NCBI RefSeq assembly: GCF_003334355.1
Contig: NZ_QOWP01000021.1
From: Escherichia coli
GTDB lineage: Bacteria > Pseudomonadota > Gammaproteobacteria > Enterobacterales > Enterobacteriaceae
DNA length: 64,000 nt
Reading direction: 5' to 3' (one strand)
The notes beneath the pieces were generated by a model that had not been told where the DNA came from, ran no database searches, and saw only the letters and a program-made list of their open reading frames with translations. Below, piece by piece: positions 22,064 to 39,928 of this stretch. The position numbers were made by a program, and so were the translations under genes. Numbering within the stretch: the stretch's first letter is position 1; each line of letters begins with the position of its first letter.

Positions 22064-22402
22064 ATTTTTATGTGAGCAGAAGATATTCATCAGAAACGAT
22101 TATGTAAATCATTTTATTTTGCCAACGGCCTCATTGTCGAAAGAAAAGAATACGCCCGTATTTCCTGAATGGATTGACTTTTTTATCCAACCACACTTCA
22201 GCGCACTGCGTTTAAAAAATGCCTCATTCTTATGCGGAATATCATCATTTCATCATGATGTCTTTGATGAGCGGTGAACACAATACACTTGCGCTGTCTC
22301 TTCAGGATGAATCCCCTGGTCTGGTGCCTGTGGGCTGATGTTGCAGCAAAGCTAAGGTCGCTTAAACGCTACTCAGTATTCACTTTTCAGAGGATGAAAT
22401 TT

Positions 22403-25400
22403 ATGAACAGGACCAGTCCCTATTATTGTCGCCGCTCAGTACTTTCCTTATTGATATCTGCCTTGATATATGCCCCGCCCGGGATGGCTGCCTTCACTAC
22501 TAATGTTATTGGTGTGGTAAACGATGAGACTGTAGATGGCAACCAAAAAGTGGATGAACGAGGTACAACAAATAACACTCATATTATCAACCATGGCCAG
22601 CAGAATGTTCATGGCGGGGTATCTAATGGAAGTCTTATTGAATCTGGTGGATATCAAGATATAGGAAGTCATAACAATTTTGTGGGGCAGGCTAATAATA
22701 CAACCATTAACGGTGGCAGACAGTCAATTCATGACGGGGGTATTTCCACAGGTACGACAATCGAGAGTGGCAATCAGGACGTTTATAAAGGGGGTATCAG
22801 CAATGGAACGACAATTAAGGGCGGTGCTTCACGCGTAGAGGGAGGGAGTGCGAATGGAATACTCATTGATGGTGGTAGCCAGATAGTAAAAGTTCAAGGG
22901 CATGCTGATGGTACAACGATAAATAAGTCTGGCTCTCAGGACATCACGCAAGGAAGTCTGACAACGAACACAACCATAAATGGTGGTCGACAGTATGTTG
23001 AACAGAGCACAGTAGAAACAACCACCATTAAAAATGGCGGTGAGCAAAGAGTATATGAGAGCCGTGCGCTGGACACGACGATTGAAGGCGGAACTCAGTC
23101 TCTGAATAGTAAGTCAACGGCAAAAAATACGCATATCTATTCTGGTGGCACGCAAATTGTTGATAACACCAGCACCTCGGATGTTATTGAAGTTTATTCT
23201 GGTGGCGTGCTTGATGTTAGTGGTGGTACGGCAACAAATGTTACCCAGCACGATGGTGCAATTTTAAAAACTAACACTAACGGTACGACGGTGAGCGGTA
23301 CGAATAGTGAAGGTGCATTCTCCATCCACAATAAAGTGGCAGACAATGTGTTGCTGAAAAATGGAGGCCATTTAGAAGTATCTCATTCCGCAAACAAGAC
23401 GATTATTAAAGATAAAGGAACAATGTCAGTTTTAACCAATGCTAAAGCTGATGCGACCCGAATAGATAATGGCGGGGTTATGGATGTTGCAGGAAACGCG
23501 ACAAATACCATAATTAATGGTGGCACACAGAATATTAATAATTATGGCATAGCCACAGGCACCAATATCAACAGCGTAACGCAAAATATCAAAAGCGGCG
23601 GGAAAGCTGACACAACAATTATATCCTCCGGGAGCCGGCAGGTTGTTGAGAAAGATGGTACGGCAATTGGCAGCAATATTAGCGCCGGAGGCTCGCTGAT
23701 TGTCTATACCGGCGGTATTGCACATGGGGTTAACCAGGAGACGGGCAGTGCTTTAGTTGCCAACACGGGCGCAGGGACTGATATCGAAGGATACAACAAG
23801 CTCTCTCACTTCACTATTACCGGAGGGGAGGCTAATTATGTTGTGCTGGAAAATACCGGCGAACTGACGGTAGTGGCTAAAACCTCGGCGAAAAATACCA
23901 CCGTTGATGCTGGCGGTAAACTGATCGTCCAGAAGGAGGCCAAAACAGATACCACCAGACTTAACAATGGCGGCATTCTGGAGGTTCAGGACGGTGGAGA
24001 GGCTAAGCATGTAGAGCAACAATCCGGCGGCGCATTAATTGCTTCCACGACTTCCGGAACACTTATCGAAGGAACCAACAGTTATGGTGATGCTTTCTAC
24101 ATCAGGAATTCAGAAGCTAAAAATGTAGTGCTGGAAAACGCTGGCTCATTAACAGTCGTCACTGGTTCCCGGGCAGTTGATACGATTATTAATGCCAACG
24201 GCAAAATGGATGTTTATGGAAAAGATGTTGGCACTGTACTTAATAGTTCTGGCACCCAAACAATATATGCCAGTGCCACTTCTGATAAAGCAAATATCAA
24301 AGGTGGCAAGCAAACGGTATATGGTTTAGCCACTGAGGCAAATATCGAAAGTGGTGAACAAATTGTTGATGGTGGGTCAACAGATAAAACACACATCAAT
24401 GGTGGCACGCAAACCGTTCAGAATTATGGTAAGGCGATCAATACCGATATCGTCTCTGGCCTACAACAAATTGTGGCAAACGGGACAGCGGAAGATTCCA
24501 TTATTAATGGCGGTTCACAGGTAGTTAATGAGGGCGGTCTGGCTGAAAACTCGGTGCTTAATGACGGCGGCACACTCGATGTGCGGGAGCAAGGCAGCGC
24601 AACGGGGATACAGCAGAGTAGCCAGGGCGCGTTGGTTGCAACCACCAGGGCGACGCGGGTCACAGGGACACGCGCTGATGGCGTCGCGTTCAGCATCGAG
24701 CAGGATGCGGCGAACAATATCCTGCTGGCAAATGGCGGCGTGTTAACCGTGGAGTCAGACACCACTTCCGCCAAAACACAGGTCAATGCGGGCGGTCGGG
24801 AGATCGTCAAAACAAAAGCCACTGCGACAGGCACGACGCTCACCGGCGGCGAACAAATCGTCGAGGGGGTGGCGAATGAGACAACAATTAACGACGGCGG
24901 AATACAAACAGTTTCAGCTAACGGAGAGGCAATAAAAACAAAGATCAATGAAGGCGGTACGCTGACAGTCAACGATAATGGCAAAGCGACAGATATCGTC
25001 CAGAACAGCGGTGCCGCTCTCCAGACGAGCACGGCTAACGGTATTGAAATCAGCGGTACTCACCAGTACGGTACTTTTTCCATTTCCGGCAATTTAGCGA
25101 CCAATATGTTGCTGGAAAATGGCGGTAATTTATTGGTATTAGCAGGTACCGAAGCTCGCGACTCCACGGTTGGCAAGGGTGGGGCAATGCAAAACCTGGG
25201 TCAGGACTCCGCCACAAAGGTTAACTCTGGCGGGCAATATACCCTTGGGCGGTCAAAAGATGAGTTTCAGGCTCTGGCCCGGGCAGAAGATCTCCAGGTC
25301 GCTGGCGGTACGGCAATCGTCTACGCAGGTACGCTGGCGGATGCATCGGTCAGTGGCGCGACAGGAAGCCTGTCGTTAATGACGCCACGGGATAATGTTA

Positions 25401-34075: not shown

Positions 34076-35017
34076 ATGGATGCACTGCATGTCGCGCTTG
34101 AAAATCTGATTAGAGATGATGGTCAAACACTAAATAGTTATTTTAGTGAAGTTAAAGTTAATTCATTGATTGAAAATACAAATGCAACTTGTCATTTTCA
34201 TTGCCTTAATCTTGATGGCAATGGACGTCCTCGGGTAGACGCGTTAATCCAATTCTTGAACGATAAAGTAGTTGATTATGCTATTCCAAGGAAAAAAATC
34301 AATGAGGCAGTGCAATATTTTAATGAAACACAATCAACAGCGAAAATAACAAAATTAGCAAATCAAGCAAAAAGATTATTTACTAGGCTTGCAAATAGTG
34401 GCGAAGGCGGTGAATTTATCCTTTTTTTATTTGCAGAGCAATTCCTTAGATTTCCACAAATTATTTGCAAAATGAGCCTGAAAACGAGTTCTCAAATGCA
34501 TTACCATGGTGCAGATGGAATACATATAGGCGTAGATAAAGATAATAAAAAATTATGTTTATACTGGGGCGAGTCTAAACTCTATTCCAGTCTGAGCAAA
34601 GGTATTTCTGAGTGTATGGATAGTATAGCTCCATTACTTCAAAGTTCTATGGGAATAGAAGGCGCTGAGACACGTGATATGCAGTTGCTGGAGTCGCACT
34701 TAAATGTTGATGATATAGAACTAGAACAAGCGTTGAAAAGATTCTTAGATCCTGATAGCCCGGATTTTAATAAATTGGAATACAGAGGAATATGCTTAGT
34801 TGGGTTTGATCTTAAAGATTATCCACAAGGGCCCAGTTCAATTGATATCAGTGAACTAGTTGCTTTGATTAATACTAAAGTCGGGAAATGGTCAACTAGT
34901 GTGCAAGGTGGTATAGTTAATAAAAAACTTGATCGCTTTGCTATGCATGTTTTTATTCTTCCTTTTCCTTCAGTAAAAGCATTTAGGGCTAGTTTAATTA
35001 AAGCATTGGAGAGTTGA
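34076..35017 (+). CDS. Nuclease-like protein with D...ExK-type motif; HamA-like (DUF1837-type) candidate, component A of a Hachiman-like defense pair
   Basis: 313-aa AT-rich ORF; HYHGADGIHIGVDKDNKKLCLYWGESKLY (about 34508-34578) fits a PD-(D/E)xK-like catalytic signature; stop sits 1 nt before the helicase start. Confidence 0.55.
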   Translation: MDALHVALENLIRDDGQTLNSYFSEVKVNSLIENTNATCHFHCLNLDGNGRPRVDALIQFLNDKVVDYAIPRKKINEAVQYFNETQSTAKITKLANQAKRLFTRLANSGEGGEFILFLFAEQFLRFPQIICKMSLKTSSQMHYHGADGIHIGVDKDNKKLCLYWGESKLYSSLSKGISECMDSIAPLLQSSMGIEGAETRDMQLLESHLNVDDIELEQALKRFLDPDSPDFNKLEYRGICLVGFDLKDYPQGPSSIDISELVALINTKVGKWSTSVQGGIVNKKLDRFAMHVFILPFPSVKAFRASLIKALES

Positions 35018-35018
35018 A

Positions 35019-37601
35019 ATGTCGTTGCGAGATTTATCTGGGTGGTTGATTAAGAATCAAGGATTCTTAAGAAAATATCAGGCATTAGTCGCTAACTCGA
35101 TAAAAGATCAATTTCCAGAGTTAAAATCAGATGTAATCCCACAGATTAGTTCTGAGGATGTCGGCTATCTTTTAACATGTGCTAGTTCTTTGGCTTTCTC
35201 AAGTGATGAGAAATGCCAAGATGCAGCCTTAAGGATTGCACAGTATTGCTTATTGAATGAAAAAAGTGAAGCAAGAAAAGATAGTGCTGCATTAATTCTT
35301 GATTCATTATCTAATAATCCAGCAATACAACTTGCTGAAAATAGGGGGTATCTTAACCCTGATTTCGAAGAAAGATTACCCTTAAAGGCTCAGTTAGAAC
35401 TAACTAAAAGAAAAATTCTATATACAATTGAAATAGATGCTGATAAGCATATTTATGCTAATAGGTTTCAATCAGAGTTTTGGGATGCGGTACAAGAAAA
35501 CTCATGGGTTAGTGTCTCTGCTCCCACCTCTGTAGGAAAATCATTTATCCTGGAATCTTGGGTGGAGCAGTTTGTAAAAAGAAATAAGAATTGCTTAGTT
35601 ATTTATATCGTACCAACAAGGGCATTGATTTCAGAAGTATATTCTGAGTTGCAAAAACGTTTGGATCCTAATTTAACAAATATAGTTAATATTCAGACAC
35701 TACCATTGAGTAATGTATACCAGAGCGAAAAATCTAATGTCTTCATATTTACACAGGAAAGATTAAATTTATTCTACAATCATTTCTCACAAATTCCAAA
35801 GATAGACGTCTTAGTTGTTGATGAAGCACACAAGATCGGTGATGGTGGAAGAGGTGTTATTCTTCAACATGTAATTGAACTGACTTGTCTAAATAACCCT
35901 GATTCAAAAGTTATCTTTGCAAGTCCTTTCACCTTAAATCCTGAAATATTGCTCAGTGATGCTCCAATATTAAAAAACAAAAGAACTATAAAAAGTGACT
36001 ATGTTACAGTTAATCAAAATTTAATATGGGTAGAACAAAAACCACGCAAGACCAAAGATTGGTTGATGTATTATTTTGCAAACGGTGAAAAACGCGAGTT
36101 AGGAAACTTTTCTTTAGAAAATGCACCATCTCCTGAAAGTAAAAGATTGCCTTTTGTAGCTCTTTGTTTAGGTAAGGGGGCTTCTGGTAACGTAGTTTAC
36201 GTAAATGGAGCCGCTGAAGCAGAATCTACTTCCAAGCTAATATCTGCAAGTATAGAAAATGAGACTGAGGATGAAGAAATTTTAGCTCTCGTTGAGCTTA
36301 GTGAGACAATTATACATAAAAATTTCGCATTAAATCGCACTCTAAAAAAGAGAGTCGCTTTTCATTATGGCAACATGCCTTTAATAATAAAGGGCGAGAT
36401 TGAACGATTGTTTAGTAAAGGTAAGATTGATTTTTTAATTTGTACCTCAACTTTAGTTGAGGGCGTAAACATGGCTTGTAAAAATATTTTTATAAGAGGC
36501 CCTAAAAAGGGTAATTCAACCCCGATGCGAGAAGAGGATTTTTGGAATCTTGCTGGCAGAGCTGGTCGTTGGGGAAAAGAATTCCAAGGTAATGTCATCT
36601 GCATCGATAGCGACAATGAAAAAATTTGGAATGGAGAGCCTCCAAAAACCAAAAAAAATATATTTATAACTCGCGCCACGGATGCTATTTCCCATGACAT
36701 GGATAAGTTGGTTTCCTATATTTTTTCAGAGCATCATTTTGGTATGTCTGAGCGGAATCCTAATCTCCAGAGTCTATTTAGTTATTTATGTTCATCATTT
36801 TATTTTTATAATGGCTTGGATAATAATCCTTACATGGAAAAGTACAATATAAAAAATATCGATGTTTTAAATGAAGCAATATTTGATGTTTTTGATTCTT
36901 TAACTTTTCCACACGAATTGGTTGTGCGGCATCCTGGTATAAGCCCGCTTTTAATGCAAAACCTTTGGGATAGATTTTCGCGGGATACAAACAAACCTGT
37001 AGAGAGATTACTGCTTTCTGAACCTGGTAGTAATGATGCGTTAGATTCATATGTATCCGCATTCTCTAGAATTAGTGATACTCTGAGTAAGAAGCTAGGT
37101 TATAATTCAAAAGGAGCTTACGTACAGGCCTTGCTAGTTTCCAAGTGGATGAAAGGTTATCCCCTAGCAAGATTGATCTCGGATAGAATAAGATATAACA
37201 AAAAGAAAAATATTGTTTTCAAAGAAGCGACTTTAATACGAGGGGTTATGAAGGATGTTGAAGAGATCGCTCGCTATCAAGCTCCAAGGCTTTTAGGATG
37301 TTATAATGATTTATTAAAAAGCTTTTATCTTTCGATAGATCGCACAGACTTAGCAAAAGATGTTGAAGATATCGGTGTTTATTTAGAACTAGGTGTAAGT
37401 TTAAAAACTCAGATTTCACTAATAGGGCTTGGCTTTTCAAGAACTGCTGCTGTAATGATTTCAGAGCTTATTCCTAATGATAGTTTAGATGAGGAAGAAT
37501 GCATTAATTGGATTAAGGACAATAAAGTTGACATGGAAGAACTGCCACAATTAGTTCAAAACGAAATACATAATATATTTCGTAACTTTTGGGTACAATA
37601 G
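35019..37601 (+). CDS. SF2 DEAH-box helicase; HamB-like candidate, component B of a Hachiman-like defense pair
   Basis: 860-aa ORF with motif I APTSVGKSF (about 35521-35547), motif II VVDEAHK (about 35815-35835), motif VI LAGRAGRWG (about 36551-36575), followed by a roughly 300-aa C-terminal extension. Confidence 0.6.
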   Translation: MSLRDLSGWLIKNQGFLRKYQALVANSIKDQFPELKSDVIPQISSEDVGYLLTCASSLAFSSDEKCQDAALRIAQYCLLNEKSEARKDSAALILDSLSNNPAIQLAENRGYLNPDFEERLPLKAQLELTKRKILYTIEIDADKHIYANRFQSEFWDAVQENSWVSVSAPTSVGKSFILESWVEQFVKRNKNCLVIYIVPTRALISEVYSELQKRLDPNLTNIVNIQTLPLSNVYQSEKSNVFIFTQERLNLFYNHFSQIPKIDVLVVDEAHKIGDGGRGVILQHVIELTCLNNPDSKVIFASPFTLNPEILLSDAPILKNKRTIKSDYVTVNQNLIWVEQKPRKTKDWLMYYFANGEKRELGNFSLENAPSPESKRLPFVALCLGKGASGNVVYVNGAAEAESTSKLISASIENETEDEEILALVELSETIIHKNFALNRTLKKRVAFHYGNMPLIIKGEIERLFSKGKIDFLICTSTLVEGVNMACKNIFIRGPKKGNSTPMREEDFWNLAGRAGRWGKEFQGNVICIDSDNEKIWNGEPPKTKKNIFITRATDAISHDMDKLVSYIFSEHHFGMSERNPNLQSLFSYLCSSFYFYNGLDNNPYMEKYNIKNIDVLNEAIFDVFDSLTFPHELVVRHPGISPLLMQNLWDRFSRDTNKPVERLLLSEPGSNDALDSYVSAFSRISDTLSKKLGYNSKGAYVQALLVSKWMKGYPLARLISDRIRYNKKKNIVFKEATLIRGVMKDVEEIARYQAPRLLGCYNDLLKSFYLSIDRTDLAKDVEDIGVYLELGVSLKTQISLIGLGFSRTAAVMISELIPNDSLDEEECINWIKDNKVDMEELPQLVQNEIHNIFRNFWVQ

Positions 37602-37693: not shown

Positions 37694-38152
37694 TCAGGCT
37701 ATTCCAGAATAGGCTTTGCTTACTTCACTATGCCTTGTGCCGCAATGCCTCAAAATAACAAGGCCATGTTGCAGTAACGCCTCACTACGTTCAGGTTCAA
37801 ACCATTTCCCGTTAAATTTTCCTCCGTGAAAAAGATTGTTTCTTACACGGCGGATTAACAAAAAAAGAAATTTTGCTAAATCTTTTTCTTGTGGTAAAGA
37901 ATCATCCCAAACTAAAGAGTCATCTTCTATGATTTGTTTTTTGGGTGGGTGTTCTTTAAAGTAGGTGATAGCAGCAATTAGCTCTGGATCAGTTGTGTTA
38001 TTTATGATTTCAGAAACTTGCTTTGCATACTCATCCCAGTTCGCTTTAGCATCTTTTATTTTATGATGAAGTCCACATGCCTTAAGGCAATATTCGTAAC
38101 GTGAAAACTCTCTAAAGAATTCATAACATAAATTATCTAGATTATTCTCCAT
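37694..38152 (-). CDS. Small HEPN-like protein candidate (Rx4H motif), possible abortive-infection/toxin-type RNase
   Basis: 152-aa ORF with GGAG RBS; motif RRVRNNLFHGG (about 37823-37855) fits the HEPN R-x4-6-H signature; divergent from the helicase gene and adjacent to int. Confidence 0.45.
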   Translation of the reverse strand: MENNLDNLCYEFFREFSRYEYCLKACGLHHKIKDAKANWDEYAKQVSEIINNTTDPELIAAITYFKEHPPKKQIIEDDSLVWDDSLPQEKDLAKFLFLLIRRVRNNLFHGGKFNGKWFEPERSEALLQHGLVILRHCGTRHSEVSKAYSGIA

Positions 38153-38181: not shown

Positions 38182-39381
38182 CTAATATTGATTGCGCTCG
38201 TACACTTTTTGGCCCCACCAATTCATAAGTCCTATTCGTTGCTCAAGGTAAGTTGAACGATTATATGCTCTGCGCACTTCATTTTTATCACTATGTGCAA
38301 GAGCAGCCTCAATTACATCTGCATTAAAACCCGCTTCATTTAATGCGGTGCTGGCAATTGAACGCAATCCATGAGCAACCAATCTACCACCAAATCCAAT
38401 CCTTTTTAAAGCAGCATTTGCCGTCTGGCTATTCATTGGTTGCTTTGGGTCATTCCGACTCGGGAAAACATGTTCACGATGGGCACTGATTAGCTTCATC
38501 ACATCAAGAATCTCTAATGCCTGAGGAGATAGAGGGACTATGTGTTCCCGCTTAGCCTTCATTCGTTCAGCTGGGATAGTCCAGAGCTTTGCATCGAGAT
38601 CGAGCTCAGCCCACCTAGCACCGGAAGCCTCAGAAGGACGAACTAGAGTCAGGAGTTGCCACTCAATGAGGCAGCGAGTCGGAACAGACAAATTTGACAT
38701 GACGAGAGAACGCATCAGCATAGGCAATTCTTCTGGGCGCAACGTAGGCATATTTTGTTTTTTTGGCTTCTCAAAGGCCATTCCAATGCCTGATGCTGGA
38801 TTGGCATCAATAAGACCAGTATTTACGGCATAAATCATTATCTCGTTAACACGCTGCACCAACCGGCGCACCGTCTCCAGCGCCCCACGAGCTTTGATCG
38901 GTTCAAGGGCTTCAACCAGTGTTCGGGCTTTGATTTGCTGGACAGGGATCTCCCCGATGGTGGGGAATACGTCTTTTTCCAGTGAACGCCATATATCTTT
39001 AGCGTAATCATGGGTAACGCTTTTGCTTTTGAGCTGGAACCAGTTAGCGGCGACCGTCGAAAAAATACTGTCCAGAGCGATTTGCTGCTGTTCCTCTGCA
39101 ACTTCAGCTTGAATTTGCGGGTCGATTCCGTTGGCTAATAGGGCAAGGTAATCTGCTCTTAACCCTCGGGCATCAGCAAGAGAAAGGGCAGGAAAAGCAC
39201 CAAGTCCCATCATAGTCCGCTGTTTTGTTGCTGGGCGTTGATAGCGAAAGCGCCAGAGTTTCTTGCCGCTAGTTTTCACTATCAGGAAAAGCCCATCGCC
39301 ATCATGCAGCGTTAGATCCTTCTCTAACGCTTTCGCGCGCAGAACTTCGGTGTTGGTCAGGGGGCGTGTTGTCCGTGCCAC
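38182..39381 (-). CDS. intA: P4-type tyrosine integrase (IntA/SlpA-like), GTG start
   Basis: 399-aa ORF ...HDGDGLFLIVKTSGKKLWRFRYQRP... with C-terminal catalytic HGLRSIASTAL and RRAYNRSTY (Tyr); starts about 185 bp from the ssrA 3' end. Confidence 0.9.
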   Translation of the reverse strand: MARTTRPLTNTEVLRAKALEKDLTLHDGDGLFLIVKTSGKKLWRFRYQRPATKQRTMMGLGAFPALSLADARGLRADYLALLANGIDPQIQAEVAEEQQQIALDSIFSTVAANWFQLKSKSVTHDYAKDIWRSLEKDVFPTIGEIPVQQIKARTLVEALEPIKARGALETVRRLVQRVNEIMIYAVNTGLIDANPASGIGMAFEKPKKQNMPTLRPEELPMLMRSLVMSNLSVPTRCLIEWQLLTLVRPSEASGARWAELDLDAKLWTIPAERMKAKREHIVPLSPQALEILDVMKLISAHREHVFPSRNDPKQPMNSQTANAALKRIGFGGRLVAHGLRSIASTALNEAGFNADVIEAALAHSDKNEVRRAYNRSTYLEQRIGLMNWWGQKVYERNQY

Positions 39382-39400: not shown

Positions 39401-39456
39401 ATTGGTATACGCTTTTAGGTATACATCCTACCGTATACCTAAACGTATACCAATAA
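39401..39456. promoter_or_regulatory. 56-bp palindrome in the int upstream region (candidate Int arm-type/operator sites)
   Basis: ATTGGTATACGCTTTTAGGTATAC ... GTATACCTAAACGTATACCAAT: the two 22-24 nt arms are near-perfect reverse complements; one arm recurs at 27210-27231. Confidence 0.45.
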
Positions 39457-39565: not shown

Positions 39566-39928
39566 TGGTGGAGCTGGCGGGAGTTGAACCCGCGTCCGAA
39601 ATTCCTACATCCTCGGTACTACATGCTTAGTCAGTCTTTACATTCGCTTGCCAGCTGCGGACGGACACGCCACTAACAAACTAGCCTGATTAAGTTTTAA
39701 CGCTTCAACCCCAGGCAGGGCTTCCACGCGATCTCTTTTGGGTTTGACCTCTCTTGATCCCCGTCCTAAGAGCGGAGGCTAGGGAGAGAGGGCTCTAAGC
39801 AGGTTATTAAGCTGCTAAAGCGTAGTTTTCGTCGTTTGCGACTATTTTTTGCGGCTTTTTACGAGGCCAACCGCCCCTCGGCATGCACCTTGGGTTTCGC
39901 AAATCCCGTCGAATCCAGAATCAGCCCC
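39566..39928 (-). ncRNA. ssrA: tmRNA (SsrA), 363 nt
   Basis: Reverse complement reads GGGGCTGATTCTGGATTCGACGGGATTTGCGAAACCC...tag-peptide region...GGACGCGGGTTCAACTCCCGCCAGCTCCACCA, the E. coli tmRNA with tRNA-like ends. Confidence 0.95.

Follow-up and report, generated by a model that had tools for sequence, protein, structure and literature searches.

Within a 64,000-nucleotide stretch of Escherichia coli contig NZ_QOWP01000021.1 (the window, to which all positions refer), two adjacent genes at 34076-37601, hamA and hamB, very probably form a canonical two-gene type I Hachiman antiphage system of subtype I-A, carried as cargo in the hotspot between psu/delta/cos and int of a P4-like satellite at ssrA. 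Directly established are the structure of the genes, their family, the conservation of the catalytic and ATPase motifs and of the two-gene synteny, and the satellite context, as well as the fold of HamA in a structural model. This Hachiman locus is already known, being a standard and already annotated system in a known satellite hotspot, and the value of the present analysis lies mainly in correct annotation. An earlier reading, made from the sequence alone, recognised both the Hachiman operon and its satellite context; the Hachiman identity that it had proposed for the pair is borne out more firmly than it was put forward, through profiles, fold and synteny. The features of the gene pair are as follows.

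34009-34068, plus strand: candidate hamA promoter and ribosome-binding site (TTGCAA-16-TATATT at 34009-34036; AAGGA at 34064-34068, 7 nt before the ATG)
34076-35017, plus strand: hamA, open reading frame (ORF) of 313 amino acids with an ATG start, encoding a predicted PD-(D/E)xK nuclease effector, HamA (DUF1837)
34514-34579, plus strand: predicted active-site codons of HamA (D147 at 34514-34516; E166 at 34571-34573; K168 at 34577-34579)
35019-37601, plus strand: hamB, ORF of 860 amino acids with an ATG start, encoding a Ski2/Hel308-like superfamily 2 (SF2) helicase
35520-35546, plus strand: HamB motif I (Walker A), APTSVGKSF, residues 168-176, with lysine K174; aligned to SGPTSLGKSF of the solved HamB chain 9wh1_B
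35820-35831, plus strand: HamB motif II (Walker B), DEAH, residues 268-271; aligned to VDEAHK of 9wh1_B
36552-36569, plus strand: HamB motif VI, AGRAGR, residues 512-517, with the arginine finger; aligned to NLAGRAGR of 9wh1_B

The two genes are co-directional and separated by a single nucleotide, with the TGA stop of hamA at 35015-35017, a lone A at 35018 and the ATG of hamB at 35019-35021; the coordinates given in the sequence-only reading, and its lengths of 313 and 860 amino acids, were exact. Its remark that this stretch is more AT-rich than its neighbours also holds (35% GC against 48-51%): the GC fraction is 0.35 in hamAB, compared with 0.48 in int, 0.51 in alpha and 0.49 in sid-psu-delta. 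Given an 860-codon open frame at 35% GC and profile hidden Markov model (HMM) E-values of 1e-135 and 0, these genes lie far beyond chance.

A profile search with the 313-residue protein, which had been suggested as a check, returned a full-length HamA/DUF1837. The PADLOC model HamA1 (PDLC00163) was matched at E 1.7e-135, with residues 2-312 on model positions 3-312 of 314, and the Pfam family PF08878 (HamA/DUF1837) at E 4.4e-61, over positions 2-230 of 230. Pfam gave no domain in HamA other than PF08878, and there is no extra N-terminal effector domain. Because certain DUF1837 domains are catalytically dead and serve as scaffolds (PMC11914072), the earlier claim of a D...E-S-K arrangement compatible with a PD-(D/E)xK nuclease was tested. 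The peptide motifs GADG (residues 145-148) and GESK (residues 165-168) are present, and D147, E166, S167 and K168, together with E110 and E113, are invariant across an alignment of 38 HamA homologs with identity down to 44%. An AlphaFold2 model of HamA (predicted local distance difference test 86.8, predicted template modelling score 0.88) has an alpha-beta-beta-beta-alpha-beta core, in which D147 stands at the start of strand 148-154 (beta2) and E166 and K168 lie within strand 159-169 (beta3); this modelled placement is the classical PD-(D/E)xK arrangement. When the model was compared with the PDB using Foldseek, the sole matches at E <= 0.001 were the HamA chains 8zue_A, 8vxy_A and 8vx9_A (probability 1.00), with template modelling (TM) scores of 0.47-0.57 and identities of 11-13%, the best being 8zue_A at E 8.6e-06; the fourth-ranked match was the PD-(D/E)xK restriction enzyme EcoO109I. 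Searching PDB sequences with HamA by phmmer gave no match, even at E <= 10, and the profile of 38 HamA sequences reached 9wh1_A alone, at E 0.13. Since sequence methods by themselves failed to reach those three chains, the link to solved HamA proteins is drawn from structure. The ExK motif is essential in HamA of E. coli ECOR31 (E138/K140; PMC12278908) and of DEC14B (E150/K152; PMC11914072), and E166 and K168 would be the equivalents of these pairs. HamA differs from RefSeq WP_016809718.1 by two substitutions, K100R and N172S, while HamB is 100% identical to WP_016809719.1.

The 860-residue protein is likewise a full-length HamB by the profile check suggested for it, matching PADLOC HamB1 (PDLC00186) at 1135 bits and E 0, with residues 1-856 on model positions 1-860 of 864. 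Its Pfam content is DEAD and Helicase_C, and its similarity to Hel308-type helicases in NCBIfam is below threshold. Among PDB sequences, HamB matches 9wh1_B at 200 bits (853 amino acids; residues 115-815) and the HamB chain 8vx9_B at 48 bits; it also matches the SF2 helicase partner in 8ZUE (AbpAB) at 76 bits. The helicase motifs APTSVGKSF, DEAH and AGRAGR named in the sequence-only reading are all present. Across orthologs at 41-83% identity, motifs I, Ia, II, V and VI do not vary, and they are the same in the solved chain 9wh1_B; the invariance applies to A168, P169, T170, S171, G173, K174 and S175 of motif I, to D268, E269 and A270 of motif II (H271 of the DEAH is not invariant), and to G513, R514, A515, G516 and R517 of motif VI. 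The long C-terminal extension that had been ascribed to the helicase is indeed there as sequence, but it is conserved throughout HamB orthologs over its full length, with invariant residues as far as I850, and is aligned to residues 103-809 of 9wh1_B. To judge from this conservation, it is an integral part of the protein and no add-on.

Assignment to subtype I-A follows from domain content as well as from profile scores. Type I-A of Cui et al. 2025 comprises HamA proteins with DUF1837 alone and an intact active site, and is the majority clade, accounting for 86% of HamA sequences (PMC11914072). The pair is thus a mainstream type I (I-A) member, and the earlier hedge that it might be divergent or unclassified was wrong. 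It could be argued that the pair is instead some other Hachiman-related system, such as type II with HamC, AbpAB (type I-B) or the trypsin and metallo-beta-lactamase (MBL) variant, since the type II models HamA2 and HamB2 of PADLOC also score high (355 and 943 bits) and the nearest solved HamB, 9wh1_B at 200 bits, comes from the trypsin-MBL variant. However, the best-scoring PADLOC models for the pair are those of type I, which outscore those of type II. No third co-directional ORF was found at the locus and no PADLOC match to HamC; PADLOC and Pfam found no trypsin, MBL or Cap4 domain in hamAB, and the 313-residue HamA spans the 314-position model fully. In addition, the D/ExK motif is kept in HamA, whereas 9wh1_A lacks ExK at the aligned positions (LYWGesk against LIHSAAF), and AbpA is catalytically inactive according to the literature (PMC12278908, PMC11914072). 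By domain content, a type II, AbpAB or trypsin-MBL identity is largely refuted, and we regard it as extremely improbable.

Comparison with characterised systems places this I-A pair among its relatives. The type I-A Hachiman of DEC14B (PMC11914072) shares the two genes, a DUF1837-only HamA with an intact (D/E)xK motif and an SF2 helicase as HamB; it defends against T4, T7 and other phages, and its complex degrades DNA non-specifically in a manner dependent on ExK and Walker A (PMC11914072). The residue numbering of DEC14B (E150/K152 and G272-K273-T274, against E166/K168 and G173-K174-S175 here) indicates a different clade or length class and not an identical system, the two having been compared by numbering alone. 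HamAB of ECOR31 (8VX9, 8VXA, 8VXC, 8VXY) is of the same type, its HamA being a fold match at Foldseek probability 1.00; there HamB is Ski2-like, both ExK and DExH are essential, and the system gave rise to the model of abortive infection through sensing of DNA damage (Tuck et al. 2024, PMC12278908). AbpAB of E. coli K-12 (8ZUE) provides the best Foldseek match to the DUF1837 fold and has an SF2 helicase as partner; AbpA carries an extra Cap4 nuclease domain and an inactive DUF1837, whereas HamA here stands alone and keeps D147, E166 and K168. In the trypsin-MBL Hachiman (9WH1/9WHK/9WHU; bioRxiv 10.1101/2025.09.03.673762), HamB is the closest solved helicase, with motifs I, II and VI identical, but its HamA partner is a 528-amino-acid fusion with a DUF1837 lacking ExK and the system signals through a protease-MBL effector, and no such genes are found here. 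A further relative is in Klebsiella pneumoniae, in which three loci (L014-L016) encode proteins of 314 and 859 amino acids with a 1-nt gap, in the psu-int hotspot with ssrA next to smpB, as here; their HamA is 63% and their HamB 62% identical to the present proteins, they lack ORF3 (the gene that follows hamB here), and their late genes run in the order sid-delta-psu.

A mechanism for this locus can be taken from homology to the ECOR31 and DEC14B systems. In other E. coli alleles, Hachiman is a 1:1 assembly of nuclease and helicase in which HamB restrains or controls HamA; it is activated by DNA damage or 3' single-stranded DNA, degrades DNA and acts through abortive infection (PMC12278908, PMC11914072, PMC13064477). 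By analogy, HamA and HamB of the present locus would form a 1:1 complex in which HamB, a 3'-5' DNA helicase of the Ski2/Hel308-like kind acting as sensor and regulator, would restrain the HamA nuclease as long as the complex is scanning undamaged DNA. An infecting phage would give rise to free 3' single-stranded DNA ends or other DNA damage. ATP-driven action of HamB (K174, D268/E269, R514/R517) on such aberrant DNA would then license HamA (D147/E166/K168) to degrade DNA indiscriminately, so that infection would be aborted and the satellite and the bacterial population protected. For this allele, it is by analogy with those systems that we infer the assembly of the complex, what triggers it, its nuclease activity and its role in defence. 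Published studies disagree on whether HamA is released or is activated within the complex (PMC12278908 versus PMC13064477); the present clade, with a HamA of about 313 and a HamB of about 860 amino acids, is distant from ECOR31 and would be a reasonable second model in which to compare "HamB releases HamA" with "HamB activates HamA in complex."

Several points weigh against a functional I-A system of the ECOR31 kind. HamB of ECOR31 has 1174 amino acids, against 860 here, and matches at 48 bits over the RecA2 region only; its HamA measures about 245-259 amino acids in the structures, against 313 here, and at 13% identity and a TM score of about 0.5 is undetectable by sequence. With similarity this low, mechanistic details may differ. 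The nearest solved HamB (9wh1_B) is from the trypsin-MBL variant, which has a different effector logic. The main residual uncertainty is therefore that, judged by sequence relationships, the distance of the clade from ECOR31 and the nearness of its helicase to the trypsin-MBL variant could entail differences in mechanistic detail. The hamA promoter is also not established. Both the AAGGA and the TTGCAA-16-TATATT element noted by the sequence-only reading are there, but in a promoter scan of this AT-rich DNA the promoter-like hexamers do not stand above chance, with 12 sigma-70-like sites found against 16.2 +/- 4.3 in shuffles; the promoter is therefore plausible. Insertion-sequence disruption of hamB in 3 of 20 carriers, described below, shows that the system is dispensable or costly. 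Finally, no experiment on this exact allele was found, a literature search with WP_016809718, WP_016809719 and WP_016809720 having returned nothing.

The pair is found in a range of genomes. Of 5,426 complete E. coli genomes, 20 carry the 4.3-kb block with 99.8% identity, and in them its genes are annotated as "HamA C-terminal domain-containing / DUF1837 protein" and "DEAD/DEAH box helicase." In three of these carriers, namely AH04 (locus L017), AH02 and CT01, hamB is disrupted at about codon 141 by an IS5-like element of the ISKpn26 family, and the split gene is annotated as fragments of 140 and 738 amino acids, a natural knock-out. An adjacent and co-directional hamA-hamB pair of 313-325 and 858-861 amino acids occurs in P4-like satellites at ssrA in Klebsiella pneumoniae, in Acinetobacter on an island where a type I restriction-modification system is the neighbour, and in Brevibacillus beside a WYL regulator. 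The pair is also found on a metagenomic P4-like contig. In the PHROGs database there are full-length families for all three cargo proteins (HamA, HamB and ORF3). Table S1A of Rousset et al. 2022 (PMC9122126) includes "DUF1837 + DEAD/Helicase_C/ResIII" among the P4 psu-int loci; WP_016809718, WP_016809719 and WP_016809720 are absent from part of the tables of that study. The presence of Hachiman in P4 satellites is stated in a 2026 preprint (bioRxiv 10.64898/2026.02.27.708500). The locus is thus a further example of a P4-like satellite carrying a defence system at ssrA.

This distribution also bears on whether the genes might serve the satellite itself, as a helicase-nuclease for replication, recombination or packaging, in its own DNA metabolism or in exploiting the helper, with no part in immunity. 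Such a role might be suggested by the position of the pair next to cos and the late genes, and by the sub-threshold similarity of HamB to repair helicases of the Hel308 type. However, the same pair is found outside satellites in defence-island settings, such as that beside the type I restriction-modification system, and P4 itself does without hamAB. The slot, moreover, is a variable cargo hotspot, occupied in other P4-like elements by defence systems of unrelated kinds (PMC9122126), and members of the Hachiman family are experimentally proven defences (PMC12278908, PMC11914072). A function in DNA metabolism or helper exploitation is consequently vanishingly unlikely.

The element that carries this Hachiman pair is a P4-like satellite of about 12.3 kb integrated at ssrA, with hamAB between psu/delta/cos and int, a cargo hotspot described by Rousset et al. 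(PMC9122126). The sequence-only reading had placed the pair in such a setting, and the P4 core genes, the CI RNA, a cos-like site and the integrase were all found. Apart from hamAB, the satellite and its surroundings contain the following features; gene names assigned by the Prokaryotic Genome Annotation Pipeline are marked PGAP.

27210-27232, plus strand: left copy of a 23-nt repeat, GTATACCTAAGCGTATACCAATA; right copy at 39433-39455, with a 22/23 match
27456-31159, minus strand: early and immunity region, comprising alpha primase, ORF106/DUF5375, the Icd-like/cI region and an AlpA/ORF88-like helix-turn-helix protein (blastp against P4, PHROGs)
30594-30681, minus strand: C4 antisense RNA (P4 CI immunity RNA), Rfam RF01695, 84.6 bits
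30750-30827, minus strand: isrK, Rfam RF01394, 76.7 bits
32073-32825, plus strand: sid-like gene (PHROGs, where sid, psu and delta are PHROG 6165, 6366 and 603; PGAP names in strain 190)
32822-33376, plus strand: psu (PHROGs), 28% identical to P4 Psu
33378-33650, plus strand: delta (PHROGs), 34% identical to P4, a short Delta of 90 amino acids
33851-33878, plus strand: cos-like site about 200 bp upstream of hamA, a short match of 19/21 to the P4 cos junction, AAGCGGGCG followed by GGCGAGGCGGGG
37694-38152, minus strand: orf3, encoding a 152-amino-acid HEPN-like protein, GC 0.36, convergent to hamAB, not a Hachiman component
38182-39381, minus strand: P4-type tyrosine integrase (phrog_1, E 4e-68; 36% to P4 Int; PGAP "integrase domain-containing protein"), the right border of the hotspot
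39566-39928, minus strand: ssrA (transfer-messenger RNA), the integration target, which the integrase abuts (ARAGORN; Rfam RF00023, 295.8 bits)

In blastp comparisons with P4 (NC_001609), identity was 74% for alpha, 69% for ORF106, 68% for the cI region, 64% for ORF88, 36% for Int, 34% for Delta and 28% for Psu; the contrast between Psu at 28% and alpha at 74% points to a mosaic satellite backbone. No homolog of P4 epsilon was found in the satellite by blastp. Among GenBank phages, megablast with the whole island found no related element, returning ssrA/att fragments alone, and tblastn with Psu returned nothing. The C4 RNA and isrK fall inside an ORF that PGAP names "Icd-like," which is the P4-type RNA immunity region. 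The late genes, which form the left border of the hotspot, run in the order sid-psu-delta, in contrast to sid-delta-psu in P4 and in the Hachiman-bearing satellites of Klebsiella. After the cos-like site comes GGCGGGCGGGGCAGCGCAC, where the cohesive end of P4 reads GGCGAGGCGGGGAAAGCAC. For the integrase, RefSeq contains a protein of 100% identity. The 23-nt direct repeat, with consensus GTATACCTAA(G/A)CGTATACCAATA, lies near both ends of the satellite and has two GTATACC half-sites per copy; P4 has annotated attP arm repeats, and by comparison with them these repeats may be arm-type binding sites of the integrase. When the distal end of the island was searched for an att core that repeats the 3' end of ssrA, the 23-nt arm-like repeat was all that emerged. 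Between delta and the cos-like site, at 33756-33772 on the plus strand, there is a terminator-like hairpin, CGCATGAGTCTCATGCG, with a T-rich tail, which may insulate the cargo against read-through from the late operon. A promoter and terminator scan found no terminator between hamB and ORF3.

ORF3 shares the cargo block with the Hachiman pair. It is 100% identical to a RefSeq protein and belongs to a family of at least 696 homologs of about 150 amino acids with an invariant HEPN-type RNxxxH-GGKFN motif; no model for this family was found in Pfam, PADLOC or NCBIfam, PADLOC giving a Cas8c match at chance level (E 0.009). One might suppose that HamA, HamB and the convergent ORF3 make up a three-gene module, in which ORF3 would regulate Hachiman, confer immunity to it or add a second effector. 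ORF3 lies within the same AT-rich block (GC 0.36) and is present in 20 of 20 E. coli genomes bearing this hamAB, and the layout int-orf3-hamB-hamA is kept in a more divergent element in which ORF3 is 67% and HamA about 85% identical. However, the Klebsiella P4-like satellites, whose psu-int interval holds this same subtype of Hachiman, have no ORF3, and neither do the hamAB loci of Acinetobacter and Brevibacillus. Conversely, homologs of ORF3 are found where Hachiman is missing: in Rhodoferax and Rheinheimera, on a plasmid-like contig, within a resolvase/DUF2188 island, at icd alongside a lambdoid integrase, and in the hotspot of a P2-like prophage. ORF3 is also transcribed convergently and has no PADLOC match to HamC or to anything else. 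A three-gene module is accordingly very improbable, and ORF3 was rejected as a Hachiman accessory gene on comparative context.

Beside the I-A pair, the hotspot could hold a second, independent cargo module, ORF3 being an undescribed single-gene defence or counter-defence factor of the RNase type that is mobile on its own; we consider this possible but doubtful. If true, the presence of two defence modules would be unusual for a P4-like satellite, as about 1% of P4 elements carry multiple systems (2026 preprint, bioRxiv 10.64898/2026.02.27.708500). The HEPN-like ORF3 is a candidate for defence or anti-defence activity.

The genomic settings of ORF3 homologs, which spread separately from Hachiman, are diverse. 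One (L009) separates the genes for tail-fibre assembly from those for the tail sheath in a P2-like prophage, and another (L018) is beside the lambdoid integrase at icd. Four (L004-L006 and L008) follow a resolvase and a DUF2188 gene at the hha/tomB-ybaA locus of Pantoea and E. coli, with changing cargo alongside. On a contig of Yersinia ruckeri the neighbour is an LPD7 relaxase (L007), and in Rhodoferax it is a weak-HEPN protein (L020); the homolog in Rheinheimera (L022) is near Abi_C.

Two further observations concern the surroundings of the satellite. To its left, an ORF of 1567 amino acids (22274-26977, plus strand) encodes an adhesin-like autotransporter of the YpjA/EhaD kind. In strain 190 (locus L001), a second integrase and a prophage come after this satellite in place of an immediately adjoining ssrA, an arrangement that points to tandem occupancy of the site in some strains.

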